Shown: one piece after another, positions 2,086-62,100 of the stretch
How positions within the stretch are numbered: the first letter of the stretch is position 1
How the letters are laid out: the number at the start of each line of letters is the position of its first letter
IMG/VR virus record: IMGVR_UViG_3300028797_000139
Coordinates: 27,055 to 91,054 of that record
Reading direction: 5' to 3' (one strand)
Source of the DNA: a virus
Taxonomy: Duplodnaviria; Caudoviricetes
Length of the DNA stretch: 64,000 bases
Program-made: the position numbers and the translations under genes
Notes under the pieces: generated by a model
What the model was told of the DNA's origin: nothing
Databases searched by the model: none
Seen by the model: the letters and a program-made list of their open reading frames with translations, nothing else

Positions 2086-2171
2086 GGGGTTATAGTGGGT
2101 AGCTAACCACTATATTTGGGGGTAAGTGCCTTTTCCATTTACCCCACCCTTAAAAAATAATCTTGAAAAGG
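2086..2171 (+). promoter_or_regulatory. three-way-junction RNA leader with SD pseudoknot (copy 1)
   Basis: P1 GGGGT/ACCCT; P2 TATAGTGG/CCACTATA, loop GTAGCTAA; P3 GGGGTAAGTG/CATTTACCCC, loop CCTTTTC complementary to GAAAAGG (2165-2171). Confidence 0.7.
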
Positions 2172-2181
2172 AAGAAGAAAA

Positions 2182-2727
2182 ATGACTTATGAAAAACGTC
2201 CAGTAAACATTAAGGGCTGGGAAATGTATCAAGTAGATACAGAAGGTAATGTATATGGTAAGAAGGGCAATATACTTAAATATTCAATTAATCATAGCGG
2301 ATATTGTATAGTTAATTTTTATCATAATCATATTAGAAAAGGTTTTGGAATTCATACGTTAGTTGCAGAAACTTTTGTGCAAGGAAAGACAAAAGAACGA
2401 AATCAGGTAAATCATAAAGATGGCAATACCCAAAATAATAAAGCAGAAAATTTAGAATGGGTTACGATTCAAGAGAATATTAATCATGCTATACATATAT
2501 TGGGACATAATAAAATTGGGGCTAATAATCCACAAGCAAAAGCTGTTTTTGGATATGATAAAAATAACGGTAAGATGAAATATGAATTTGGTTCTTTAGC
2601 TGATGCCGCAAGATATTTTACTAAACCAAATAAAGATTATAAAATAATTCAAAATATTATTTGGTGTGTCATACACAATAAAGCTAATAAGAAATCTTAT
2701 CATGGTTGTATTTGGAAATATAAATAA
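2182..2727 (+). CDS. free-standing HNH homing endonuclease (NUMOD4-HNH-NUMOD1 type)
   Basis: YQVDTEGNV, IHTLVAETF, VNHKDGNTQNNKAENLEW, C-terminal FGSLADAAR...YHGCIWKY. Confidence 0.9.
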   Translation: MTYEKRPVNIKGWEMYQVDTEGNVYGKKGNILKYSINHSGYCIVNFYHNHIRKGFGIHTLVAETFVQGKTKERNQVNHKDGNTQNNKAENLEWVTIQENINHAIHILGHNKIGANNPQAKAVFGYDKNNGKMKYEFGSLADAARYFTKPNKDYKIIQNIIWCVIHNKANKKSYHGCIWKYK

Positions 2728-2778
2728 AGTTTTTACACAGTTTAACGAAACCGTTCTGTATAAAAACGGCATGAATAA

Positions 2779-2851
2779 CGCGGAGCGAAGAAGTCTTCAA
2801 TTTGGTCTCATAAGCCAAACCCAGTGGGGGCAGTACCCACCTCCGCACCCA
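2779..2851 (+). tRNA. atypical initiator-like tRNA-Met(CAU)
   Basis: C1xA72 mismatch, GCGGAG/CTCCGC stem, TTTGGT-CTCATAA-GCCAAA arm, shrunken D-loop, T-loop GGCAGTA, CCA. Confidence 0.65.
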
Positions 2852-2853
2852 AT

Positions 2854-2929
2854 GGCCCTTTCGACTAATGGTTAGGTCACAGCCCTTTCAAGGCTGTAAT
2901 GCTCAGTTCAAATCTGGCAAGGGTCGCCA
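2854..2929 (+). tRNA. trnE: tRNA-Glu(UUC)
   Basis: GGCCCTT/AAGGGTC acceptor, CAGCC-CTTTCAA-GGCTG arm, CCA. Confidence 0.9.
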
Positions 2930-2930
2930 T

Positions 2931-3004
2931 GCTTCCATAGTTTAATGGTAAAACATGGGATTTGTAAACCTAAAATCCAAGTTCGATTCTTGGTGGAAGC
3001 TCCA
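2931..3004 (+). tRNA. trnT: tRNA-Thr(UGU)
   Basis: GCTTCCA/TGGAAGC acceptor, loop TTTGTAA, TTCGATT T-loop, CCA; imperfect anticodon stem. Confidence 0.8.
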
Positions 3005-3005
3005 C

Positions 3006-3034
3006 TTGACAAAATCAAAAATATATGTTATAAT
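3006..3034 (+). promoter_or_regulatory. sigmaA promoter
   Basis: TTGACA-17-TATAAT with extended TG. Confidence 0.8.
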
Positions 3035-3062
3035 ACACATACAAAAAAGAAAGGAGAACAAA

Positions 3063-3392
3063 ATGGCAAGGTACAAGTATTATACGGATGGTAATGGTCG
3101 GACGATTTGTGTTTCGACTTTTGCCAAAAAGATTGTTAAGGGGATTGCAAAGTGTAGTCCTGCTGATACCTATGATGACGATGTGGGCAAGAACCTTGCT
3201 CGACTTAGGTGCGACATGAAAGTTGCTAAGAAGCGACTTAACAAGGCAAAGGAAAGATGGACACAGGATTCTGATTTTTACATTCTCGCTCGTAAATGGG
3301 TGGATGAAAGTCAGAAGTATCTTGCAGATGCTTCAAGAATTTATTCTGAAGCCTGTAAGAATCTTGATGATTATGAAAATTCTCTAAAGTAA
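3063..3392 (+). CDS. conserved phage protein of unknown function
   Basis: AAGGAG SD then ATG at 3063; the longer track ORF overlaps tRNA-Thr and the promoter. Confidence 0.75.
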   Translation: MARYKYYTDGNGRTICVSTFAKKIVKGIAKCSPADTYDDDVGKNLARLRCDMKVAKKRLNKAKERWTQDSDFYILARKWVDESQKYLADASRIYSEACKNLDDYENSLK

Positions 3393-3399
3393 TTCTACG

Positions 3400-3570
3400 T
3401 GGACAGTATAGTTTATACTATAGCAGGCGTATGGGTGGATAAGTCCTATAAAGAAGCCCCTTGAACCGCGTCATGTAATTGCGTCAGTAATAACAGTAAT
3501 GGCAAAAGGTGGAGAATATTCTGTTTGACAAATCGGAAAAGACGGTTGGCAGTCTGGACAGACAGACACA
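3400..3570 (+). ncRNA. putative structured ncRNA preceding tRNA-Gln
   Basis: GC-richer non-coding stretch with tandem hairpins AATCG-GAAAAGA-CGGTT and GTCTG-GACAGA-CAGAC. Confidence 0.4.
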
Positions 3571-3578
3571 ATATATAT

Positions 3579-3653
3579 GGCGGGTTAGTGTAATTGGTAG
3601 CACAAAGGTCTTTGAAGCCTTATGAGGGAATTCAAATTTCTCACCCGCTGCCA
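3579..3653 (+). tRNA. trnQ: tRNA-Gln(UUG)
   Basis: GGCGGGT/ACCCGCT acceptor, AAGGT-CTTTGAA-GCCTT arm, TTCAAAT, CCA. Confidence 0.85.
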
Positions 3654-3658
3654 TTAAG

Positions 3659-3746
3659 TTAAGCAAGGGAGCAATAGAGTAATTAACTATTGAGATAACA
3701 AAGCCTTTCCTTTGAGCTTGCTTAATTAATTCGATTTTCTGAAAGG
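3659..3746 (+). promoter_or_regulatory. three-way-junction RNA leader with SD pseudoknot (copy 2)
   Basis: P1 TTAAGCAAG/CTTGCTTAA; P2 CAATAG/CTATTG, loop AGTAATTAA; P3 CAAAG/CTTTG, loop CCTTTC complementary to GAAAGG (3741-3746). Confidence 0.65.
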
Positions 3747-3761
3747 GGAAAACATAAGAAT

Positions 3762-4694
3762 ATGGCATTAATTAATCAGTATTCAAAAGAAGAATTAGAA
3801 AACATTGTAAAGAATAGTTATAGTTATCGTGAAGTGTTAATTAAACTTGGTTATTCTTGTGTGAATGGTGCGAACAATAATACATTAAAGAAATATTTGA
3901 ATAAATATAATATATCTGTTGAACATTTTACTTATTATCGAAGGAAAAATCAATATCAATTATCATTTGATGAAATTTTTTGTAAAAATTCGTTAGCCTC
4001 CCAAAAAAGATTAAGGGAAGCAGTTATTAAATATAATATTTTAATTTATAAATGTGAATTATGTGGTAATGAAGGAGTCTGGATGGATAAACCATTGTCA
4101 CTAAATCTTGACCATATTAATGGACATAATCATGATAATAGGATACAAAATTTAAGATGGTTATGTCCAAATTGTGATAGACAACAACCTACTTTTGGTG
4201 CTAAAAATTTACAAAAGTTAGAAAAGAATACGATGTTAATTCCTTTTGTAGGAGATTCAGTAGAACCAATTTTTTCAAGAATGGAAATTGTTGTGCCAGA
4301 TAGAGAAATTATCAAGAAAAAATTATATGATTATAAAAACTATACGCAATGTGCCAATTATTTTGGAGTAAGTGCTAATCAGCTAAGACGTTGGTGTAGA
4401 AAATATAATCTTCCCACAACTATTTCTATTGTTAAACACACTTCTATTGACGGGTGGGAAACAGAAAATTGGAACGATGCTTATACTCCTCCAATGCCAC
4501 ATTCAAAGCAAAATAAACCATGTGCAATGTTAGATAAAAACACCGAAGAAATTTTGCATATATTTTCTTCTCGAAGCGAGGCCGCACGTTTTTTGAATCT
4601 TAATCAAAACTGTATTTCTCATATTAGGGCTGTTTGTAATGGTTTGCGAAAAACGGCTTATGGATATAAATGGAAAAATATCGAAGATGATTGA
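3762..4694 (+). CDS. free-standing HNH endonuclease with HTH and NUMOD1 domains
   Basis: CELC...LNLDHINGHNHDNRIQNLRWLCPNC; C-terminal FSSRSEAAR...TAYGYKWK. Confidence 0.9.
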   Translation: MALINQYSKEELENIVKNSYSYREVLIKLGYSCVNGANNNTLKKYLNKYNISVEHFTYYRRKNQYQLSFDEIFCKNSLASQKRLREAVIKYNILIYKCELCGNEGVWMDKPLSLNLDHINGHNHDNRIQNLRWLCPNCDRQQPTFGAKNLQKLEKNTMLIPFVGDSVEPIFSRMEIVVPDREIIKKKLYDYKNYTQCANYFGVSANQLRRWCRKYNLPTTISIVKHTSIDGWETENWNDAYTPPMPHSKQNKPCAMLDKNTEEILHIFSSRSEAARFLNLNQNCISHIRAVCNGLRKTAYGYKWKNIEDD

Positions 4695-4723
4695 TGATTA
4701 TAAATCACAGTAGGTGAAAACTG

Positions 4724-5572
4724 ATGGAGCAACTACAAATTTCATGCGCGAATATTTATAAAATAAGCAAACATGAAATCGCAAAAATTGATTTTGCTTT
4801 ATGCAAACAACCGACAGAAACTTTAGAATCGTTTTATAATCGACAAAGTATTAAGCCAGACTTGCTTATTAATGGTGGATTTTTTAATATGCAAAATGGC
4901 AATACATTGTTTACTTATGTCGATGAAAATAAAACAATTTCTTATACAAGTGAATTGTTATATGGGTTTGGCATTAATAATAATCAATTAAAAGCAGATT
5001 TCTATAATCAAAACTATAAAGATTTTATTAGTGCATATCCTATATTGATTAAAGATGGTAAAGCATTTTCGTCCTCTATAGGAAATGAAATTAACTATAA
5101 AGCACGAAGAACTGTTTTGGCTTATGATGATAATTATATTTATGTAATTGTTGTTGAAAGTCCGGGGATGAATTTTTCTGAGTTAAAACAAATGCTTTTG
5201 CAATTGTGTGTTACCCAAGCCATTAATTTAGATGGGGGCGGCAGTACACGATTGTTAGTGGAGGGGAAGGTCAAAACAAAGCAAACATATTCACGCCCTG
5301 TGGATAATGTAGTGGCATTTTATCTTCAGAAAAATTTAATTATATATCGTGTCCAAACAGGGGCTTTTAGCAACAAAGGTAATGCACAGCAGTATCAACA
5401 AAAAATTCAAAAGTTAAATGACACTATTGGTGCTGGTTACAAAAATGCTTATGTCAGATTTATTGATGGCTTGTATAAGGTGCAAGTTGGTGCGTTTAGC
5501 AACAAGGCAAACGCAGAAAAAGTGGTAAATGATTTGAAACAAAAAGGTTATAATAGCTTTATTACCACTTAA
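4724..5572 (+). CDS. phosphodiester glycosidase (NAGPA-like) with C-terminal SPOR domain
   Basis: INGGFF, ARRTVLA, AINLDGGGST motifs; YRVQTGAF/YKVQVGAF SPOR repeats. Confidence 0.85.
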   Translation: MEQLQISCANIYKISKHEIAKIDFALCKQPTETLESFYNRQSIKPDLLINGGFFNMQNGNTLFTYVDENKTISYTSELLYGFGINNNQLKADFYNQNYKDFISAYPILIKDGKAFSSSIGNEINYKARRTVLAYDDNYIYVIVVESPGMNFSELKQMLLQLCVTQAINLDGGGSTRLLVEGKVKTKQTYSRPVDNVVAFYLQKNLIIYRVQTGAFSNKGNAQQYQQKIQKLNDTIGAGYKNAYVRFIDGLYKVQVGAFSNKANAEKVVNDLKQKGYNSFITT

Positions 5573-5661
5573 TTTCTTCCCAATGGCTGAAGGGAATTAA
5601 AGGCAATGGTCAAGCCATTGTAAACCAAGAAGCCACTTTAATATATAGGAGGTAGGAATCC

Positions 5662-5931
5662 ATGTATATTTATAGCGAGAAGACAAAGAGACGCTATGAA
5701 ACTGTGGAAGAATGTATCAAGGCCGAAGAAGAGTACGATAAGGCACTTGCAGAAGAAAAGGAAAAGAAGGAAAAGCTTGCAAGTGAGCGCAAAGAACGGG
5801 CAAAGGAAGTAGAAAACGCCTTTAAGGAAGCTAATGATTTACTGAAGGCTTTCATTAAGGACTATGGAAGTTTTCATACCACTTATAATTCTACTTTCAG
5901 TCCCATTCGTTGGTTTGACCTTTGGTGGTAA
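5662..5931 (+). CDS. hypothetical coiled-coil protein
   Basis: ORF with AGGAGG SD. Confidence 0.75.
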   Translation: MYIYSEKTKRRYETVEECIKAEEEYDKALAEEKEKKEKLASERKERAKEVENAFKEANDLLKAFIKDYGSFHTTYNSTFSPIRWFDLWW

Positions 5932-5943
5932 AAGGCGTTTTAT

Positions 5944-5982
5944 AAAAATAACAGGGGTTAAAATTTCCCCTGTTATTTTTTT
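5944..5982 (+). terminator. intrinsic terminator
   Basis: AAAAATAACAGGGG/CCCCTGTTATTTTT hairpin plus T-run. Confidence 0.8.
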
Positions 5983-5990
5983 ATTTATGC

Positions 5991-6019
5991 TTGACAAAGA
6001 ATGTTTTTTATGGTATAAT
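5991..6019 (+). promoter_or_regulatory. sigmaA promoter
   Basis: TTGACA-17-TATAAT with extended TG. Confidence 0.8.
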
Positions 6020-6050
6020 ACACATACAAAAACAAAAGGAGGTCAAAAGA

Positions 6051-6875
6051 ATGGTGAATAAATATTATATTGATTATCTGCGCGGTGCTGGTAAAAGCGA
6101 AAATACAATTAAGACCTATGTAAACAATATTAATATGATGTTGAAGAGTATTAATAAGCCTGAAACAGAAATTACTTTTTTTGACCTTGTGAATTGGCAA
6201 GCAGGGCTTTGTGGAAAATCTACTTCCACTATTCATACTAAAGTTGTGGCTGTAAAAGACTATTTTGATTTTCTTGTAAATGGTCATGCGATTAACGAGA
6301 ATCCTGCCAATGGTCTTGCTACTGCCAAAGTGGTTAATAAGAAAAAGCCTGACCCTGAAGTTGGTATGGTTAGACAGCTAATTAATTGCGCGAGAGGCAA
6401 GAGGGACAAGGCTATGATTACTGTTATGGCTACTACTGGTATGCGCTTTGCAGAAGCCACCAGTATAACTAAAGAACAGTATTATAGGCGTAGATTTGAT
6501 ATTGTTGGTAAAGGAAATAAACTGCGTGAAGTTTATATCAATGACGAAGCTAAAAAGGCTTGTGATGCTTATTTGGCTGAAAGAAAAGATGATAATGAAC
6601 TTCTGTTTATTTCCCATCGTGGCAATAAAATTAATAACGCCAATTGGTGCAAGGGTTTGAAGTCTAATGCTAAAAGGGCTGGTTTTGAATGTTGGAATGA
6701 AATAAGTCCTCATTGGCTTAGACACGCTTTTGCCACTACTGCTTCTCAGATGGGCGTTCCTGTGGCAGATATAGGAAATGCGCTTGGACATAGTGATTAT
6801 GCCAAAGTGACTACTACTTATATTCATACGCCACAGAATAAAGTGGTCAATCTGATGAATGATATTAAGTTTTAA
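6051..6875 (+). CDS. tyrosine recombinase (XerC/D-like)
   Basis: TGMRFAE, GKGNK, HWLRH, LGH, TTTY catalytic residues; AGGAGG SD before ATG 6051. Confidence 0.9.
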   Translation: MVNKYYIDYLRGAGKSENTIKTYVNNINMMLKSINKPETEITFFDLVNWQAGLCGKSTSTIHTKVVAVKDYFDFLVNGHAINENPANGLATAKVVNKKKPDPEVGMVRQLINCARGKRDKAMITVMATTGMRFAEATSITKEQYYRRRFDIVGKGNKLREVYINDEAKKACDAYLAERKDDNELLFISHRGNKINNANWCKGLKSNAKRAGFECWNEISPHWLRHAFATTASQMGVPVADIGNALGHSDYAKVTTTYIHTPQNKVVNLMNDIKF

Positions 6876-6937
6876 GGAGGGGTATATGTACATAACTTAG
6901 CTAAAAAATAAGATAATTTATGGAGGAAAAAAATTAA

Positions 6938-7222
6938 ATGATTAATGAAATTATTGAAGCGATTGAAACTAAATTTGAAAACAATGAAGAAATAAAAGTA
7001 GACTGTATGAAATGGTTATATTGGCAGTTATGTAATATACCTGAAAAGAACAGCAGTTTAGACAGGGCTTTAATTATTCTTTATCAATGGTTTGAAAAAC
7101 ATAGGAAATGTATTTATTGTGGAAAAAGTTTAATTTCCACTTATGTTAAAACTGATAAGGGTAATGAAATTATAGATTTTTGCCCTTTCTGCGACACAGC
7201 ATTTGGTGAAGCGCATGGATGA
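6938..7222 (+). CDS. hypothetical Zn-ribbon protein
   Basis: CIYC...CPFC; SD present. Confidence 0.65.
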   Translation: MINEIIEAIETKFENNEEIKVDCMKWLYWQLCNIPEKNSSLDRALIILYQWFEKHRKCIYCGKSLISTYVKTDKGNEIIDFCPFCDTAFGEAHG

Positions 7223-7448
7223 AAATAAACAATTAGAAATTACCAATATTGTCACAGAGGCAATTGAAGACAGATTAAAGCGTGAATTTAATATCGGTAT
7301 TGTAGCAGGATGGGAAGCCTGTATTTCTACAATTTATAAAAATACAAGAAACATGACTTCTGCAAAACAAATTAAAGATTATATTAAACAAAAGTATAAA
7401 GAAAATATTAAACCAATTTTAAGTTTTATACAAGGAGAAAAAATATGA
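7215..7448 (+). CDS. hypothetical protein
   Basis: ORF overlapping both neighbours. Confidence 0.6.
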   Translation: MDENKQLEITNIVTEAIEDRLKREFNIGIVAGWEACISTIYKNTRNMTSAKQIKDYIKQKYKENIKPILSFIQGEKI

Positions 7449-8503
7449 GCGGAATTTTGAATCAGAGTAGGCAGAATTTTAGATGTGTTGGCAAGGTTAG
7501 TGAGTTTGACCTGTATCACGAAGATTGTGAAGTTACCAACCGGGAAACAAATGAAAAGGTGCAGAGTGAGCGTATCCGTGGCAAGATTACTGTAAACATT
7601 GGAAATGGCGTAAAGCAGTTTGATGTTTTTTGTAATAGAATGACTTCTAAGGGAGAGGAATCTAAGCAATGGAATAACGCCCTGAGTTGGCTTGAACTCA
7701 CGCCTGAAATTAATAGCAGTATTACTACTAAGTTTGGTACCACTGAAGAAAAGAATAGTGTTATGGGTGACAGGGAAAATGCAAGCCTTGTTCTTGTAAA
7801 TGGGCGAGTAAGCGAAAATGCTTATTATAATTCCAACACAAAGGATGTTTCTGTTGGTCTTAGATGGAACGCCAATAGAATTAGCACAAGCAGGGTTGGT
7901 GAGGATGAAGAATATGGCTGTACATTAAATGGCAATTTCTTTATTAAGTCTGTTGTTCCTGAAGAGGTTAATGATGAAGAAACTGGAAGACTGAAGGTTG
8001 TTCTTGTGGCGGTTGATTATGCGGCAAGTCCCATTCTTATTAATGCTTTTGTTGAGGAAGATTTGGCTGAAGCCTTTGAAGACTGTTACGAAGTTGGAAG
8101 TACAGCTAATTTTGATGTCGATGTGGTTAGCGAACACATTGGCGGCAAGATAAGTGGTAAGAAGATGTTTGGTAGTAGTGGTAAAATTAAGGCCAATGGA
8201 TTTGACAGGGAAATTCTTGTAGTCGTTGGTGGGGAAGAAGCTATTGAAGAGCCTGAAGAAGAAGATGACGATGGTAATATTATTGATAATGGATGGATTG
8301 ACCCAAAGGCTATGAAGATGGCTTTGAAAGAAAGAGACACTAAGCTGTCTGAGATTAAGAAGAATGGCGAAAAGGGAAATTCTACTACCCCTACTACAAA
8401 GCGTATGTCCACTATGAAGAAGAAGAAGTCCAAGGTTGTTGAGCCTGAATTTGATTTTGACGATGATGATGATAATCCTTTTGACGATGACGAAGATTTC
8501 TAA
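7445..8503 (+). CDS. putative single-stranded DNA-binding protein
   Basis: beta-rich body, very acidic C-terminal tail ending DDDEDF, replication context. Confidence 0.6.
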   Translation: MSGILNQSRQNFRCVGKVSEFDLYHEDCEVTNRETNEKVQSERIRGKITVNIGNGVKQFDVFCNRMTSKGEESKQWNNALSWLELTPEINSSITTKFGTTEEKNSVMGDRENASLVLVNGRVSENAYYNSNTKDVSVGLRWNANRISTSRVGEDEEYGCTLNGNFFIKSVVPEEVNDEETGRLKVVLVAVDYAASPILINAFVEEDLAEAFEDCYEVGSTANFDVDVVSEHIGGKISGKKMFGSSGKIKANGFDREILVVVGGEEAIEEPEEEDDDGNIIDNGWIDPKAMKMALKERDTKLSEIKKNGEKGNSTTPTTKRMSTMKKKKSKVVEPEFDFDDDDDNPFDDDEDF

Positions 8504-8524
8504 GGAGTTTAAGGAGTAGTATAT

Positions 8525-9538
8525 ATGGCAGAATTTGATATTTTTAATCCATCTTTAAGCGTTGTATCAAAAGGAATTGAGGGTAAATTAATTCTTATTC
8601 ATTCTAACGAGCGAAAATTGGGAAAAACAATGCAAGCCACAAGATTTCCTAAACCGTTTTATTTGAGATTTGAACAAGGTATTAATGCAATTTCTGGACT
8701 GCCTTATGCCCCTTTGAACAAATGGAGTGATTTTAAAAAGGTTCGTAAACAACTTACCAATCCTAAAACCATAGAACAAGCACAAGCCATGTACTCAACA
8801 ATTATTGTAGACTCTTTGGATGTAGCTATTAAATGGTGCGATAAGTATGTGTGTGGTATGCAAGGCGTTGATAGATTAAATGATGGCAATAGTGGTTATG
8901 GTTTATGGAAAGAATATGAAAATGAATGGTTTAATGAATGGTCGCCTTTAATTAATGCTGGCTATGCAGTTGTATTTATTTCACATTCTGAAATTAGAAA
9001 AATGAAAGACCCTAAAACAGGGGTAGAATATGAACAATTTTATCCCAAAGGGGACAAAAGAACTATTGATTTAATCGTAGATGCAGTAGATTTTATTGGA
9101 TATGTTAAAAGCAACGGATTTGACGCAGAAGGAAATCCTCAAATGTCAAGCATTTATTTTAAGGCTTGCCCAGAATTTCTTGCTGGTTCTCGCTTTAAAT
9201 ATATGCCTGTAGAAATTACACCTTTTACAGCAGAAAATGTACAAGAAGCAATTCAAAAAGCAGTAGAACAAGAAGAAATAGAAAGTGGTAATGCCACAGT
9301 TTCTTATGAACAAAAACAAGCACAAGAATATATGTTAAATAACGAATTTTCATTTGATGAAGCTATTAACATAGTTAAGCCTTTATATAAAAAAATGTTT
9401 AATAAGGACAAAGAATTAACTATAGACATCGTAGAAAAATATTTGGGCGCTGGAAATAAAATTAGCAATGCTTCTGACAAACAAATTGAACAAATTTTAA
9501 TGATTATTCATGAATTTGAAGAACAATTAAATAATTAA
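8525..9538 (+). CDS. AAA-family ATPase (Sak4/AAA_24-like)
   Basis: Walker A-like KLGKT, Walker B IIVDSLD, FISH motif. Confidence 0.75.
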   Translation: MAEFDIFNPSLSVVSKGIEGKLILIHSNERKLGKTMQATRFPKPFYLRFEQGINAISGLPYAPLNKWSDFKKVRKQLTNPKTIEQAQAMYSTIIVDSLDVAIKWCDKYVCGMQGVDRLNDGNSGYGLWKEYENEWFNEWSPLINAGYAVVFISHSEIRKMKDPKTGVEYEQFYPKGDKRTIDLIVDAVDFIGYVKSNGFDAEGNPQMSSIYFKACPEFLAGSRFKYMPVEITPFTAENVQEAIQKAVEQEEIESGNATVSYEQKQAQEYMLNNEFSFDEAINIVKPLYKKMFNKDKELTIDIVEKYLGAGNKISNASDKQIEQILMIIHEFEEQLNN

Positions 9539-9548
9539 AAAATTAATA

Positions 9549-9630
9549 GGGGTCATAAATGGTTGCAAACATTTATGTTAAAGGGCAATATCCTTACTCT
9601 ATTGCCCTACCCTTATATCTTTTAGTAAGG
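9549..9630 (+). promoter_or_regulatory. three-way-junction RNA leader with SD pseudoknot (copy 3)
   Basis: P1 GGGGT/ACCCT; P2 CATAAATG/CATTTATG, loop GTTGCAAA; P3 AGGGCAATA/TATTGCCCT, loop CCTTACT complementary to AGTAAGG (9624-9630). Confidence 0.7.
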
Positions 9631-9642
9631 GGGAGATAATAA

Positions 9643-10335
9643 ATAGCTCATGAAGATTTAACTGGTAAAACCTTTGGAAGATTGACAGTATTGAAAGAAG
9701 TTGGTCATCCAAAAGGAGGGATATATTTATGGGAATGTGAGTGTAGTTGCGAAAATCATACCCATATTATTGTTGATGGGAATCATTTGAGAAGTGGCAA
9801 TACAAAATCTTGTGGTTGTCTTCATAAAGAACAATTAAGAGAACGAAATATAAAAAACAGAATATATGCAAAAGAAGACGCTCGATTGGTAAGAATTTGG
9901 AGGGCTATGCGTCACAGGTGCTATTCTGTAATGGACACACATTATGATACTTATGGTGGAAAAGGAATAGAAGTGTGTGAAGAATGGCAAGAATTTGAAA
10001 ATTTTAAAGAGTGGGCATTAACTCATGGATATTCAGAAGAATTAACAATACATAGAATAGATAACGCAAATAATTATTGTCCAGAAAATTGTGTGTGGGC
10101 AGATTGGGAAACCCAAGCTAATCATACATCTTCTAATAAAATGATAACTTATCAAGGTAAAACACAATCTTTATCTATGTGGGCTAAAGAATTAAATTTA
10201 AATTATTATAGAATTAAAGCAAGATTAAATGCTTGTCATTGGTCTGTGGAAGAAGCATTCAATAGTCCTAAATATACTCAAATTAATTTGTATAAAAATA
10301 ATCAAAATAAAATTTTACAAAACGATAAAGAATAA
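9643..10335 (+). CDS. HNH-like homing endonuclease (DLTGxxFGRL family), probable ATA start
   Basis: in-frame ATA after SD AAGGGGGAG adds the family N-terminus EDLTGKTFGRLTV; WECEC, SCGC, YGGKGI, IHRIDNANNYCPENC. Confidence 0.8.
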   Translation: MAHEDLTGKTFGRLTVLKEVGHPKGGIYLWECECSCENHTHIIVDGNHLRSGNTKSCGCLHKEQLRERNIKNRIYAKEDARLVRIWRAMRHRCYSVMDTHYDTYGGKGIEVCEEWQEFENFKEWALTHGYSEELTIHRIDNANNYCPENCVWADWETQANHTSSNKMITYQGKTQSLSMWAKELNLNYYRIKARLNACHWSVEEAFNSPKYTQINLYKNNQNKILQNDKE

Positions 10336-10340
10336 AACAC

Positions 10341-10384
10341 TTGACTTCCTCCTTTGTTTGTGGTATAATATGAGCAAAGGAGGA
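10341..10384 (+). promoter_or_regulatory. promoter with anti-SD spacer (module copy 1)
   Basis: TTGACT-17-TATAAT; spacer TCCTCCTTTGTT pairs with downstream AGCAAAGGAGGA. Confidence 0.75.
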
Positions 10385-21348: not shown

Positions 21349-21398
21349 TTGACAAATCTCCTTTTGTATGGTATAATAAAGTATCATATGAAAGGAGA
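21349..21398 (+). promoter_or_regulatory. promoter with anti-SD spacer (module copy 4)
   Basis: TTGACA-17-TATAAT; TCTCCTTTTGTATG pairs with CATATGAAAGGAGA. Confidence 0.8.
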
Positions 21399-21405
21399 AT
21401 TTATT

Positions 21406-24044: not shown

Positions 24045-24098
24045 TTGACAAATCTCTTTTCTTATGGTATAATAAACATACTTTAAGAAAGGAGATTT
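24045..24098 (+). promoter_or_regulatory. promoter with anti-SD spacer (module copy 6)
   Basis: TTGACA-17-TATAAT; AAATCTCTTTTCTTA pairs with TAAGAAAGGAGATTT. Confidence 0.8.
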
Positions 24099-24104
24099 TG
24101 TTTT

Positions 24105-24302
24105 ATGAATCAGTTTAGCAAGTGTAGATATTGCACACGTTATAATATGGAAGATGGCTGTTATTATAGAAATTTTTACGCCTATGGCTGTAATAACCAT
24201 GAAGACTATAAGCCTGACCCATATCGTGTTTTGGACAAGGCAAAAGAATTGAATATTAGTGTCGTTGATTTGTTGGCACTCATTGAAATGGAGGATTATT
24301 AA
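24105..24302 (+). CDS. small Cys-containing protein
   Basis: ORF with SD. Confidence 0.65.
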   Translation: MNQFSKCRYCTRYNMEDGCYYRNFYAYGCNNHEDYKPDPYRVLDKAKELNISVVDLLALIEMEDY

Positions 24303-25270
24303 TGGGTGTTTATATCAAAGGTTTAGAAATGCCTAAAAAAAGAGAAGAATATGAATTTGTAGATAAAATGGGTAAAAGGGTTTATAGAAAAAGTTTTGTA
24401 AAAAATAATGGTAATTATAATAAATATAATGGTTATTGTTATTATCGTTATCGTGGCTTTGATGGAACAGGTATAAAAATATTGGTTCATAGATTGGTTG
24501 CTTTATATTTCATAGAAAATCCCAACCCCAAAATTTATACCCAAATAAATCATATAGATGGAAATAAAACAAATAATAAAGCCAATAATTTAGAATGGTG
24601 TAATGAAAAGTTAAATATGGAACACGCAAGCAAACACGGCTTAATAAATTGTGATTCTGAAAAACGAAAAATGCAATCAAAAGAAAATATTAAAAAAGCA
24701 CAAGAAAAGATAACAAAGTTTTATGCAAAATATGATAAGAATGGAAATTTAATTGAAATTGTAAAAGGTGTAAAACATTCTGATGATTGCATATCTATAA
24801 GAAGATTAACCTATAAAGAATATACTTATAGAAGTTGTGAAATATTAATCGAAAAATATGGAGAAGTACCTAATAAAATTGACGCTTATAAAAGTTTTGA
24901 AGTAGCTTGTAAATCAAGAAAAAAATATATTGAATATACAGCAGATGGTAAAATTAAGGAATATTTTAAAATAAAAGACCTGCCCATAAGTAGAGATAGC
25001 CTATGGTTTGCTTTTAATCATGATATTCCTGATATAATAAATGGTTCAAAATGGGATATAATAAAAATAGATTTTCCTATACCCTCAACAAGAAAATATA
25101 AAACTCAATCTATTTCTGCTTTAGATGATGAAGGAAATGTTAAATTCGTTTTTTCCTCAGTAAAAGAAGCGTTACAATTTTTAAATGTCAAAGGGGCAAA
25201 TAGTTTTTACAATAGTATTAAATTACATAAAAAATACAAAGGATATTATTGGGTAAAAAATGATACATAA
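24302..25270 (+). CDS. free-standing HNH endonuclease with NUMOD1-like tail
   Basis: VHRLVALYF, INHIDGNKTNNKANNLEWC, KYKGYYW. Confidence 0.85.
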   Translation: MGVYIKGLEMPKKREEYEFVDKMGKRVYRKSFVKNNGNYNKYNGYCYYRYRGFDGTGIKILVHRLVALYFIENPNPKIYTQINHIDGNKTNNKANNLEWCNEKLNMEHASKHGLINCDSEKRKMQSKENIKKAQEKITKFYAKYDKNGNLIEIVKGVKHSDDCISIRRLTYKEYTYRSCEILIEKYGEVPNKIDAYKSFEVACKSRKKYIEYTADGKIKEYFKIKDLPISRDSLWFAFNHDIPDIINGSKWDIIKIDFPIPSTRKYKTQSISALDDEGNVKFVFSSVKEALQFLNVKGANSFYNSIKLHKKYKGYYWVKNDT

Positions 25271-31932: not shown

Positions 31933-34664
31933 CTTAAATCTTTCCAAAGATTTTGAAAGATGTTTAGATGATTTGAAAAAGAAATATGGGGAAGACTTTG
32001 AATATATTAATGGCGTTCATCCAAGTCAATTAGACTTTTCTGAATTTATTAATAATTTTGTTCAAAAAGATACTTTAGCAGATGTCAGTATTGACCCTAA
32101 TTCTAATGCTAACAATCGTGATATTCGGTCTTTTATGACAGAAAAAGGAAAAAGTAGTGATAAATTGTTTGCCTTAAATAAAATTTTTATCACTATTAAA
32201 AAGCAATGGGGATTAAGAACAGCCAAGCAGTGGTTAGAGCAGGAATTTAATAAAGGTTTATATTTGAACGATTCAGCCACAGCCAGTTATTTCCCGTATT
32301 GTTGGGCTAACGATTTAACAAGATTAGCTACAGAAGGTTTATTTTTCTTAAAAAATTATAATAATCAACCTCCCAAGCATTTAACTACTTATTTCGATGA
32401 TGTCATTGAATTTGTTTCTTTCTTATCTAATCGTCAATCGGGAGCTGTCGGTTTACCTAATGTTTTAATTTGGGCCTATTATTTTTGGAAGAAAGATGTA
32501 GTAGAAGGGTATTACATGAAAGACCCTGATTATTATCTAAAGCAACAATTTCAAAAATTTATATTTAGATTAAATCAACCTTTTCTTAGAATTGACCAAA
32601 GCAGTTTTACTAATGTATCAATTTTTGATAGATGCTATTTAACCGAATTATTTGGCGATATAGAATTTCCTGATGGTAGTTTTGCTATTGACCAAATTGA
32701 AGAATTAATTAATGTGCAAAAAGTTTTTATGGAAGTGGTTAGTGAAATAAGAGAAGAAAATATGTTTACATATCCCGTTGAAATAATAGCGGCCTAACGG
32801 GGCGACCCGTTTTGCAAACCCTGTGAACTCAGGGAAACTCTGAATAATACACCTTCTTTAAGCGGGGGTGATAAAATGGCAAGAAAAATAGGCATACCAG
32901 CCGAAAAGATACTTGAATTGCACAATCAGGGATTATACGACCAAGAAATAGCAAATATTCTCGGATGCGAAAGAAGCAATATCACTATTAGACTAAAGAA
33001 GCTCGGAATTACAAATCGCAGAAGCAAAATCGAAGATATTAAACTTAGAAATCGCATTAGTGAGTCGCTAATTGGAAGATATTGCGGTGAAAATAATCCA
33101 AATTATAAAGGATATAACGACGAAAAACAAATAGCGCGTGGAATTTTTAAGACATTCTCCAAACGACTAATAAGAAATGCGGATTACACTTGTGAATTTT
33201 GTAAACGTCGCGGTGGAAATATGGAATGTCACCATATTAAACCGTTCAACATTATCTTCACCGAGTTTATCAACAATAGGTACGATGGCAACATCAATAC
33301 TATCTATTCCCAACTGATGCAATACGACGATTTTATCAATGAAACTAATATGGTGGTGCTGTGTGAACAGTGTCATTATGATGTGCATTATTCAGACAAT
33401 CCTGAACTAAGCCCATATAGATGGGAAAGCGCAACGACTATCTCGAAAGAGAGTACATCGTAAGCTATTGACGATGGAAGCGCAGGGGGGCTAATTCTTA
33501 GTCCATGATATAGTCTGCTCTCTACGGCGACGTAGAGCTGTTCGAAAGAACGGCAACGGCGTAGCGAACCGTTGTGAACACAAAGGATTAACATATTCGC
33601 TTCTTTATAAGGATGGCAAGTTCGTCGATGAACCCTTTGCAAAATGGTGTTCAAGCCATAACATCAAGTGGAGCGATAGCAACTTCTTTGTAAGTGATAA
33701 TGTTGGGGTTTTGTCTAATTGTTGCAGACTCTTATCAAACACCCAAGAACTTGACCCCTTTATTAATTCCATTGGTGGAACCGCCTTATCTGTAGGTTCT
33801 TGTAGAGTTAGCACAATTAATCTTGCCAGAATTGCTTACGAATCTAAATTTAATAAAAAGAAGTATTTAGAAATACTTAAAAATCGTGTTGAACTAAATT
33901 GCAAGGCATTGTATTCTATGCGTTATATTTTACAACGTAATATAGAAAAAGGTTTATTGCCTAACTATCAAGCAGGTGCCGTAGAATTAAATAAACAATT
34001 TTGCACCATTGGCGGGATAGGAAATTTTGAAGTTATGGATATGTTTGGATTAATTAAAACAGACGAACTTGGTAATAAATTTTATTCTAATGAAGCTATA
34101 GATTTTACATTAGAAATTCTAAATATCATTAATGAAACAAAAGATAATTTTGTGAATATTCATAATTGTGATTTTAAGTTTAATCTTGAAATGATTCCTG
34201 CTGAAAATTGTGCAGGGGTTATGGCAACTGCTAACAATTTAATTTATGAAGATAATAAATATTTTATTTTATCTAATCAATGGATTCCTTTAATGGAAAA
34301 ATGTACCATTCAAGAAAAATGTCATTTAGGTTCTTTATTTGATAAACGCTGTGGTGGTGGATGTATAGCCCATATTAATACAGAAGGACGCTTCCCAACA
34401 GAAGAAAGTGCGTGGCAAATGTTGAACTATGTAGCTTCGCAAGGTGTAATTTATTTTGCATTTACTACCAAAATTTCTGTATGTAAAGATAAACACGCTT
34501 TTATAGGCACTTCCACTTGTCCTAAATGTGGGCAACCTATAGCTGATACTTATTCAAGAGTAGTTGGATTTTATGTACCTGTATCTTCTTATCAAAAAAT
34601 TCGTAAACAAGAATTTGATAAGCGCCAATGGTATAATGCAATGTCAATGGATAAAATGATATAA
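31922..34664 (+). CDS. nrdD: class III anaerobic ribonucleotide reductase, exons 31922-32778 and 33587-34664 (644 aa predicted)
   Basis: spliced FTYPVLTYSLL junction; PPKH, QSGA, NCCRL, PAEN, glycyl-radical SRVVGF. Confidence 0.92.
32779..33586 (+). mobile_element. group I intron in nrdD carrying an HNH gene
   Basis: P1 CCGU/GCGG with U.G; R GCAACGACTA, S GATATAGTCT; ends in G; removal restores frame. Confidence 0.9.
32876..33463 (+). CDS. intron-encoded HNH endonuclease (HTH + HNH)
   Basis: CEFC, ECHHIKP, LCEQCH; 3' end runs through the intron core. Confidence 0.85.
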   Translation: MARKIGIPAEKILELHNQGLYDQEIANILGCERSNITIRLKKLGITNRRSKIEDIKLRNRISESLIGRYCGENNPNYKGYNDEKQIARGIFKTFSKRLIRNADYTCEFCKRRGGNMECHHIKPFNIIFTEFINNRYDGNINTIYSQLMQYDDFINETNMVVLCEQCHYDVHYSDNPELSPYRWESATTISKESTS

Positions 34665-59100: not shown

Positions 59101-62100
59101 TAACCAATCTTCCACCGCTTGGGCAATTTTAGATTGTTTTATTCTGCAAGCATTACATTTATCTTTATGTTCATAAATTAAATGACTTGCGTCTACTGTA
59201 AAATCTGCACCACAAGCACATCTTGCTTTAAGATAATATCCGGTTCCCTTAAATTCTTGGTCGTATATATAACATCCATTATTACGCTTTTCCATAAGCA
59301 AGCGAATATTATATAGCGAATAAGGATTTCTCACAGAAAATTTTTCAAAGGTACTGCCCTGTAAAAATCTGGATGCAGTAATAATACCCTTATATCCTTC
59401 TTTGTCTTGCACTTCTACTTTTTCTTTAGTTGACCGAATATTATTACTCAACAATGTTAAACCCATTTCTTTCGCTTTATCATAATAAACGGACATGGGC
59501 GTTCTTCTGTTTTCAGTATAATTTGCTTCATATCGAATTTTGCGATAACAAGTCGCGCAAACTTTATTGTCAGCATGAACAAAATTGGCCCAAGTAGTTT
59601 TATATGTTTTTCCACAAAAACCACACAAAAATACTAATTTAGAATTACCGCTTAAATAATCTTGCTTTTTTGACAACAGAACGGTATTAGTAGTCACATA
59701 ATTGTCCATATAATATATTATATTTTCCCAAAAATATGTATTTTTAATACTAAATGGTTTGCTATATGCTTGTGTCTTATCTAAGGCATCTTCCACCGTC
59801 CGCAGACTTCGATTAAATAAATACCCGTCTACATTTTTACATTTCATAGGGGTATCGACGCTTTTATAAACGGTTGATAATAATTCTAATTTAGCCAAAG
59901 AAAAAATATATTTGGCTTCCTCCAATGTTCTTCTTTTCATAAATTCCTTCCCCTTATGCTTTCACATAAGATTAGATTATTTCTTCACCCCTGATTAAAG
60001 GGGGTCTGCCATTTCGATTTAAGGGAATTTCACCCGCCAGCTTTGGCCCTACTCCTATTGCGATTCAGTCGCCAAGGGATAATCGTTTGACACACTCCTG
60101 TTCGGAGCTTCGCGCCCAAAGACCCATTATTACAACACTTAGGCTTTTAACCTTATGTCATCCTTGCTGTTTTTAACACTTTCGCACATTCACGCTCGTC
60201 AATCTTTCAAGACCACGTTGTAGTCGCAAGGCTTTAGGGATTACTGGGTTTAGACAAATACTTATAATGCACATTACTGTACACTTAGGGACTACTCTCC
60301 CCGTGCGGTTTTAGCACCGTTTCTATTGATTTCTGTTATTGCCGTCATGAGACCTAAGGTTTGTTCGTATGTAACACCACCAATAGACAAGGCGGCACTG
60401 GCTTTTCCGATGTTCGTTGCTACGTTTTTGTTTTGCAAGTACGCTACGCTTGCAGAATATTGGATAAATATTCCTTATACTTTCATATAAGACCAGCATA
60501 TTTCTTCATCCTTTATTAATTAAAGGAGTCCCCCATTTTCAATAGCCTTATAGCGATTAACTATTTACTTTATGCGTTTGACACACCCCTATTCAGGGCT
60601 TCGCGCCCAATGACCCATTGCACAAACACTTAGATTTTTCAATCATATGCCATCCATACATTTTTTAATACTTTCGCGCTTTCACACTTACGCTTATTTC
60701 ATCGTTATGTTGTAGCAGTATGGCTTTAGGGATTACTGGGTTTAGAGGGAAGCTAAGTGCATATTACTATACACATGACCTATTTTATTAAGTCAGCACT
60801 ACTCACCGAAAAGTTATTTGAGACTTCATTATTTTATATTGATTATAGTTGCCAACTATAATTGATTAAATAATTTAATCACTTATAAATTTCTTTATAA
60901 GAATCGACCATATCTTTCACATTTAATCTGTGATAGGGCGTTTCGGAAATAGGCACTTTTTCCTACTCTACTCGTTTCGTGCTTATGCCTTATTCTATTC
61001 ATAATATTATATCATAAATAGTTACATTTGTCAAGTTAATACTTGATTACTTTCGATGGTCTGTGAACCTTACTGCATATTTCTATGTAGTCTTGGATGC
61101 GGATTGTCCAATTTTTATCTTTGTTACTATACCCTGAATCATTACTTCAAGCCCTTAAAACATTACTGCTTTAAGTTAGTAGATAAAACTCTAAGGATGT
61201 CCCCGTCAATTAACCCTATAGCCGCCAATTTTTAGTCAACGGCATCAATGATATGCTCGGCATTTTCTGCTTCAATATTAAACGCTTTCATTTGGCTAAT
61301 AATAAAGTTAGCAGATTCGCCAGCACTTAATGCTTCATCGGCTACATTTTGATATTCCGTAGATATTAAAGCTAATGTTTTACTATCTTCTTCATTGAAA
61401 CCAGACTTTTTGAAATTAGTAGCCGCATCTACCATTTCGCTTGCAGTTCTGGCAGTAATTTGTCCTAATTGTCCTAACTCTTCAACATATTGTTCTAATC
61501 CTGAGCCACGGAGGTCTGACACCTTTTTAACGTATTGTTCAGTTAAAATTTAACTTTCATTAAATACCGATTCGTAACATCGTACCCGTTATATACATAA
61601 CAGCTTTATATTTCTATAAAGACCAGACTATATCTTACTCTTTTATTAAAGAGCCACACCACTACCCAACGATTTTAGGGATTATAGTCGTTGAACCTTC
61701 CTCTTTTCGAGGCTTGGATGCTGATTATCCATTTTATAATACTTAGGATTTAACCATATATCATTTTATGATTTTTTTCTGCTTTCGCCACTATCACGCT
61801 TATGTTATTTCACCATTACGTTGTAGTATCATAAACTTTAGGAAGTCCCAGCAATTCAATGTGTTTATATTTTATCTCACGATAAAATAGAGCCTAAATT
61901 AACTCAGTTATTGCCGCATCTAATTCATACGTTTGTTCTGCCATACTTTCTGCCACATCAATAAACTCACGCATAATAGCGTTAGCAACAGAAATAGACA
62001 TTTCAAAACCCGAAGTATCGGCATGAACCCCAACAGTTACAGGATTAGTATTTAGTTGACTTTGTATATCGGCTGTGTCCAGTTTTACTTTTGCCAAAAT

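Follow-up and report, generated by a model that had tools for sequence, protein, structure and literature searches.

RNA structures that sequester the ribosome-binding site (RBS) limit translation of T4 I-TevI, I-TevII, I-TevIII and segB and of Aeh1 mobE (PMC2988022). In the T-even scheme the RBS is held in the stem of a single stable hairpin, and an internal late promoter gives rise to late transcripts devoid of the inhibitory arm (PMC2988022). Here we describe a structured RNA leader that recurs in front of free-standing HNH endonuclease genes in a 64,000-nucleotide stretch of phage DNA (Caudoviricetes), termed the window, which forms the last 64 kb of the 91,054-bp IMG/VR phage record IMGVR_UViG_3300028797_000139, itself about 95% complete. 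To our knowledge, the protection of a carrier genome from homing endonucleases is understood for just a few T4 genes. Similarly to the T-even hairpins, the leader is an RNA structure located directly upstream of a phage homing-endonuclease gene that occludes the Shine-Dalgarno (SD) sequence and presumably limits translation of the nuclease. In contrast to the T-even hairpins, it is the apical loop of a hairpin (P3) that pairs with the SD tract, across a closing stem (P1), with no simple SD hairpin being conserved; the promoter, where present, lies wholly upstream and leaves the structure on every transcript; and the leader moves with its cassette between HNH families and insertion sites. The function is probably the same as that of the T-even hairpins, although two of their defining features, the SD in a simple stem and the embedded late promoter, are absent.

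The reading that we consider likely is that of a portable 5' leader of free-standing HNH cassettes in which an anti-SD pseudoknot serves as a translational brake. Some 65–75 nt fold as a three-way junction composed of the short closing stem P1 and the hairpins P2 and P3, with the 6–7 nt apical loop of P3 acting as an anti-SD mimic that pairs with a purine tract forming or abutting the SD. P3 would be transcribed and folded ahead of the emergence of the SD, so that its loop could capture the SD at once. Binding of the 30S subunit would be reduced and the nuclease made at a low level, despite the perfect host-type promoter (TTGACA-17-TATAAT) that the cassette usually carries and its strong SD.

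All three leaders of the window lie on the plus strand where an initial annotation had placed them, and their P1, P2 and P3 layout is seen both in the sequence and with RNAfold. Copy 1 (2086–2150), a three-way junction also recognised by the covariance models, comprises P1 (2086–2090/2146–2150), P2 (2091–2098/2107–2114) and P3 (2119–2128/2136–2145). Its P2 loop (2099–2106) is GTAGCTAA in DNA and GUAGCUAA in RNA, and its P3 anti-SD loop (2129–2135), CCTTTTC (CCUUUUC), is complementary to the purine tract GAAAAGG (2165–2171) at the SD of HNH gene 1, with which it forms seven of seven Watson-Crick pairs (−6.4 kcal/mol). Copy 2 (3657–3727), defined by RNAfold and sequence reading, comprises P1 (3657–3667/3717–3727), P2 (3672–3677/3687–3692) and P3 (3699–3703/3710–3714); the P2 loop is AGTAATTAA in DNA and AGUAAUUAA in RNA, and the P3 loop (3704–3709), CCTTTC (CCUUUC), is matched by the tract GAAAGG (3741–3746) at the SD of HNH gene 2. 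Copy 3 (9548–9613), again a three-way junction found by sequence reading, RNAfold and the covariance models, comprises P1 (9549–9553/9609–9613), P2 (9554–9561/9570–9577) and P3 (9583–9590/9600–9607), with the P2 loop (9562–9569) GTTGCAAA in DNA and GUUGCAAA in RNA. The P3 loop of copy 3 (9591–9599) reads U-CCUUACU-C (T-CCTTACT-C in DNA) and is complementary to AGUAAGG (9624–9630), which overlaps the SD GGGGGAG (9629–9635) of HNH gene 3. Thus, the exact complementarity between the P3 loop and the SD purine tract reported at the outset holds for all three window copies.

Beyond the three copies of the window, 22 further distinct leaders were recovered in human-gut phage contigs, giving 25 in all. 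They were obtained through protein homologues of HNH gene 3, loci anchored on the AAA_24 gene, three pattern scans placing no constraint on P2, P3 or the downstream gene, and covariance-model scans covering six whole phage records and the fetched loci. The entire P3 loop pairs with a tract 25–32 nt downstream of it in each of the 25 leaders, those of copy 2 and its relatives among them, and the pairing is exclusively Watson-Crick in 23 of them, with a single G.U in the other two (L191 and L182). Ten distinct loop:tract sequence pairs are observed: CCUUUUC:GAAAAGG, CCUUACU:AGUAAGG, CUUAUCU:AGAUAAG, CCUCCA:UGGAGG, CUUGUCU:AGACAAG, CCUAUAU:AUAUAGG, CCUACU:AGUAGG, CCUAUCU:AGAUAGG, CUUACCU:AGGUAAG and CCUUUC:GAAAGG. 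In every leader 3–6 nt of the SD (AAGGAG or GGAGG) lie within the tract, and the predicted loop:tract helices range from −5.3 to −8.6 kcal/mol. The pseudoknot was scored by our own script, with swap and shuffle controls on the first 21 leaders, in which the exact complement of another loop type was present downstream in 3 of 168 swaps and the complement of a shuffled loop in 2.5% of trials. Covariation between loop and SD, originally claimed from three copies, is strongly supported by ten covarying pairs across all 25 leaders. When both strands of the 91 kb were scanned for a CCT-containing hairpin loop with an exact complement of at least 6 nt within 50 nt downstream, nine matches were returned; the four located at an SD and start codon are the three leaders and one promoter module. 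A looser three-way-junction descriptor gave about 17 matches per shuffled genome, the sequence being AT-rich, and thus the architecture alone is not significant; it is the SD pairing, the position ahead of HNH genes and the covariation that are.

The stems display a similar pattern of paired change. A gap-free alignment of copies 1 and 3 gives 81% identity, contrary to the initial description of copies sharing little stem sequence, and the differences between them are compensatory: P2 has four double changes, and P3 and the loop:tract helix have three each; as judged from their sequences, the two copies are true homologues. Covariance model R1, built from copies 1 and 3 only, scores them at 96.3 and 93.2 bits, respectively, and model R2 at 81.7 and 84.5 bits. 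For 21 distinct leaders the share of paired stem cells is 93.4%, compared with 65.2% after shuffling (none of 500 shuffles was as high) and about 50% when partners were slid, these controls being the relevant comparison for an alignment that was fitted to the model and leans to its structure. In the same alignment, changes on both sides are seen at eight of eight P2 pairs and ten of ten P3 pairs. P1 is short (4–5 bp), its best-supported register being AGRG/CYCU with one pair changed from G-C to A-U, and the junction bases are partly conserved (AGAG-GU ... UUUAA ... UA-CUCU).

A leader precedes an HNH gene in 25 of 25 cases, including leaders that came from searches in which the downstream gene played no part. 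The nucleases belong to four catalytic or architectural families (phrog_374/3377, phrog_99/4578, phrog_59/959 and phrog_10822), and by PHROG and Pfam assignment the three window copies stand, as first proposed, before HNH genes of different types. Near-identical leaders are located ahead of different HNH families in three pairs of loci (L088 and L092, L157 and L143c, L083b and L143b). At the AAA_24 locus, promoter, leader and HNH gene occur together in two relatives and all three are missing from seven, which display a terminator or an overlapping next gene at that place. Similarly, loci L072 and L079, whose flanks are 95% identical, differ by a clean 756-bp insertion (L072:3511–4266) holding promoter, leader and HNH gene, which starts directly after the AAA_24 stop codon and shows TAAAC at each junction; about 75 nt of the inserted cassette precede the leader, which thus does not lie at the edge. 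The presence and absence at the AAA_24 locus together with this insertion show that the leader travels with HNH cassettes, as the initial annotation had suggested. A second clean insertion in L072 (4740–5465, about 726 bp) carries a DNA methyltransferase gene with a plain SD and without the leader.

A separate arrangement is found on the human-gut phage contig L143, where two complete leader-HNH cassettes, one of phrog_374 type and one of NUMOD4 type, lie head to tail at 840–2490, each with its own consensus promoter, and a third cassette is located 5 kb further along.

G.U pairs are present in P1, P2, P3 and the pseudoknot, and the reverse strand scores lower than the sense strand (14.5 against 27.9 bits and 24.6 against 49.2 bits). 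Thus, the structure belongs to the sense RNA, which supports the proposal of a structured cis-element. The near-perfect inverted repeat of P2 just downstream of a promoter would also suit a fold formed on the opposite strand, as a cis-antisense RNA, or an element acting as DNA, such as a palindromic operator or a recombination site. Yet, read from the other strand, the G.U pairs of all helices and of the pseudoknot turn into A.C mismatches; that strand is the lower-scoring one with both models, and no antisense promoter above background was detected at the window copies. Moreover, the stem arms covary rather than stay conserved, the opposite of what a protein operator displays, and the position of the leader inside the L072 cassette speaks against a recombination site at its edge, so that an antisense or DNA element is extremely improbable. 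Control by a cis-antisense RNA of the IS10 RNA-OUT type was rejected on the same grounds of sense-strand score, sense-specific G.U pairs and lack of an antisense promoter above background.

In most relatives a perfect or near-perfect TTGACA-17-TATAAT promoter, often with an extended −10 element, ends 5–8 nt before P1 (the loci include L060, L065, L066, L072, L074, L083, L084, L100 and L143). Since this promoter is wholly upstream of P1, the whole leader, including the anti-SD loop, is placed on every transcript in most relatives. No consensus promoter of their own was found at the three window copies, of which copy 1 begins 5 nt past a sequence ending in CCA, copy 2 begins 4 nt past tRNA-Gln (3579–3653) and copy 3 begins 10 nt past the stop codon of the AAA_24 gene (8525–9538). 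The location of P1 within a few nucleotides of the expected 5' end, where the cassette has its own promoter, and the closeness of copies 1 and 2 to the CCA and to the tRNA-Gln 3' end are also what a module for mRNA stabilisation or processing would show, in which the 5' structure shields the transcript from RNases that depend on the 5' end, or flags a site of processing, and the loop:SD pairing is secondary. The AU-rich, single-stranded linker between P1 and the tract fits such a module as well. However, the ten covarying loop:SD pairs would be left unexplained, P1 has just 4–5 bp, and both copy 3 and L063 are located inside an operon with no nearby 5' end; a stabilising or processing role as the primary function is therefore very unlikely. 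Among other candidates, a terminator was rejected for want of a U-run, a tRNA-like gene was ruled out by ARAGORN, and a leader peptide was dismissed on finding a 3-codon ATG frame in copy 1 only.

At 10341–10384 and 21349–21400 the window also holds consensus promoters with a spacer that complements the SD of the next gene downstream (TCCTCCTTTG...CAAAGGAGGA being an example). In these modules the RBS would be hidden solely on read-through transcripts, as in T4. These promoter-embedded RBS hairpins (for example at 10347–10384 and 21349) and the HNH leaders share, within one genome, the theme of an anti-SD paired with the SD; in the former the anti-SD is located in the promoter spacer, whereas in the latter it is part of a three-way junction that follows the start site.

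The P2 loop of the window copies is 8–9 nt long and contains, as described at the outset, a 6-nt palindrome flanked by unpaired purines. In HIV-1, the dimerisation initiation site (DIS) is a hairpin whose apical loop presents a 6-nt self-complementary sequence between unpaired purines. A DIS-like layout is observed in copies 1 and 3 (1+6+1), in copy 2 (2+6+1) and in the GUGUACAA class; two classes hold a palindrome of just 4 nt (GCGC). Across the leaders the P2 loops fall into few conserved classes carried on freely covarying stems, and those of the main family are GUUGCAAA (G-UUGCAA-A), GUAGCUAA (G-UAGCUA-A), GUGUACAA (G-UGUACA-A), (A)GCGC(A) and UCGCU. Four of these five classes are self-complementary, as is the copy 2 loop AGUAAUUAA (AG-UAAUUA-A); the chance of four palindromic classes in five is about 1e-4 by our own estimate, taking 1/16 per tetramer. 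The exception, UCGCU (L066, L067, L072 and L198), is a non-palindromic class whose conservation spans three stems that differ from one another, one in L066/L067 and one each in L072 and L198. The GUUGCAAA loop is kept on at least eight different stems, and it accompanies five types of P3 loop and HNH genes of at least two families. Where the loop has 8 nt, its four central bases read UGCA, AGCU or GUAC, variants related by paired substitutions that leave the palindrome intact. Such changes do not arise from pairing within the hairpin, because just a 0–2-nt loop would remain, and they favour a symmetric partner, which could be a second molecule of the same RNA or a protein dimer. Thus, the P2 loop is clearly under selection and its palindromy, kept by covarying changes through UGCA, AGCU, GUAC and GCGC, is real and non-random.

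The initial annotation had suggested that the RNA may dimerise. The P2 loops of two transcripts would kiss, and dimerisation would alter formation of the SD pseudoknot, thereby sensing transcript concentration. The conserved classes on covarying stems, the self-complementarity of four classes and of copy 2, the palindrome-keeping tetramer changes and the lack of a second copy of the hexamer at a consistent cis position are all in line with this switch. Nevertheless, the UCGCU loop is maintained on its three stems although it is not self-complementary, and the palindromes, being AU-rich, are weak by nearest-neighbour energies (from −0.4 kcal/mol for UAAUUA to −5.1 kcal/mol, compared with −7.9 and −10.9 kcal/mol for HIV-1 DIS hexamers). 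Nothing evident connects P2 with the pseudoknot. In addition, unlike the DIS, some members present just the 4-nt GCGC or the non-palindromic UCGCU, and no genome-packaging context exists. The accompanying claim that orthogonal palindromes prevent cross-talk is contradicted by contig L143, two cassettes of which (L143a and L143b) share GUUGCAAA. Regulation by dimerisation is consequently judged unlikely. Were it to operate, selfish cassettes would sense the concentration of their own transcript or of cassette copies through a kissing loop controlling the SD pseudoknot, which would give phage a natural translational switch that depends on concentration and needs no protein.

The persistence of GUUGCAAA across stems, P3 loop types and HNH families also suggests a common trans-acting partner and not one specific to each gene, which could be a host or phage RNA-binding protein, possibly a symmetric dimer, that binds the P2 loop and stabilises or opens the pseudoknot to time expression. 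Discrete loop classes, the non-palindromic UCGCU included, fit sequence-specific recognition, and the partly conserved junction bases are consistent with it. However, no candidate protein was identified, recognition of several dissimilar loop classes would call for either more than one binder or a single tolerant one, and the cassettes move between phages, a spread that dependence on a phage-specific factor would hinder. Such an operator is considered rather unlikely. The palindrome-preserving variation of P2 makes both RNA dimerisation and a dedicated binding factor testable.

The anti-SD brake remains the preferred reading of the leader as a whole. A hairpin loop that pairs at or near the SD and sets ribosome access is likewise found in the IncI-alpha/IncB repZ/repA pseudoknot and in the preQ1-II and SAM-II riboswitches. 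The plasmid pseudoknot, however, activates translation and is countered by an antisense RNA, for which no promoter was seen at the leaders. In preQ1-II and SAM-II the ligand pockets are conserved, whereas the leader junction is weakly conserved (GU / UUUAA / UA) and has no Rfam riboswitch match; the leaders show no link to metabolic genes, and the P2 loop is conserved as several alternative classes. As for the earlier claim that the RNA keeps a toxic nuclease off, the SD-covering pairing is confirmed, and silencing would be its natural consequence.

Several observations weigh against the brake or restrict its scope. RBS-adjacent pseudoknots can also activate translation, as in IncI/IncB repZ/repA, and no mechanism of relief is visible. 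The calculated loop:tract energies suggest partial attenuation and not a complete block. Two HNH genes of the window (24302–25270 and 32876–33463) have no leader, nor do close homologues of HNH gene 1 in other phages (L007–L032), the latter indicating that the leader is not obligatory. Most of the distant homologues of HNH gene 3 (L034–L050) were likewise without it. Copy 2 was missed by both covariance models and has no detectable sequence homology to the main family; it is treated here as an analogue or a very distant member that shares the architecture. Copy 2 is conserved, with compensatory changes, in a small clade of its own, formed with L181 and L182, whose HNH homologues are 62% and 65% identical and, together with their leaders, are also located directly after tRNA-Gln. 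Relative to copy 2, L181 displays two compensatory changes of P1 pairs and a P3 loop lengthened to CCUUUUC, matched by the tract GAAAAGG. More distant homologues of the copy 2 HNH protein (51% identity) at the same tRNA-Gln site had no leader.

The leaderless HNH gene at 24302–25270, of phrog_59 type, overlaps the stop codon of a small open reading frame (24106–24303), itself preceded by a consensus promoter at 24046; this arrangement is a different way to express a nuclease.

The leader is a compact RNA module with strong covariation that is mobilised together with promoter and nuclease; in human-gut phages it is found at several insertion sites and with no fewer than four HNH families. The leader offers a testable model of selfish-cassette self-regulation through an anti-SD loop pseudoknot, could serve as an annotation marker for free-standing endonuclease cassettes in viromes, and is a candidate for a small tunable translational attenuator whose strength would be adjusted through the loop:tract pair.

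Of the genes that follow the leaders on the plus strand of the window, HNH gene 1 (2182–2727, ATG at 2182) encodes a NUMOD4 plus HNH_3 protein of phrog_59/959 and HNH gene 2 (3762–4694, ATG at 3762) an HNH plus NUMOD1 protein of phrog_10822. HNH gene 3 (9643–10335, phrog_374/3377) has no in-frame ATG, its frame opening at ATA 9643, 7 nt after the SD, which is the sole in-frame start at proper SD spacing. Orthologues begin with ATG GCT AAA CAT GAA, compared with ATA GCT CAT GAA in the window phage, and an ATG close by, at 9650, lies in another frame and encodes MKI-stop. The related locus L083a has the start codon ATT where its relatives have ATG. Loss of the ATG in HNH gene 3 could mean that the nuclease gene has begun to decay or that its expression is lowered by a weak start codon.

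No leader corresponds to a named family, in agreement with the initial annotation. With Rfam 15, matches in the window at the gathering threshold comprised tRNAs and one group I intron and none fell on the leaders; at permissive E values (up to 5) nothing was detected on the leaders of the window, L033, L084 and L092. No published description of the leader was found in the literature. A strict sequence pattern derived from copies 1 and 3 returned no match in IMG/VR, and these two copies are therefore without near-identical relatives there. A megablast search of the region against GenBank phages also gave no match. The nearest isolated phages infect Enterocloster bolteae and have a DnaB about 37% identical to that of the window phage. 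No leader was found in these relatives (Enterocloster phages PMBT24 and CB457P1/P2/CB473P3), and weak R2 matches in the Enterocloster phages were discarded as antisense and inside a gene. A candidate at 105109 (minus strand) of G001 lies inside a coding frame and was considered spurious, and many matches of the pattern scans were unstructured chance matches. The related contigs derive mostly from human-gut metagenomes, and the region itself contains tRNA genes, an integrase, a replication module (YorF-like, AAA_24 and DnaB) and several free-standing HNH genes.

Three minor observations were made along the way. L105, L112 and about 35 further metagenome loci carry an unrelated, highly repeated gut sequence that matched the pattern by chance and folds as a long imperfect hairpin (GATAACAATGAAGAAG...CTTTGTTGTTG). 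The group I intron match scores 62 bits and lies on the minus strand of the window (61604–61911). Upstream of the window (G000:C1:12160–12400), about 250 bp of near-pure (TA)n-like repeats with nested AT palindromes dominated the hairpin scans, and this stretch may be a replication origin or a packaging region.

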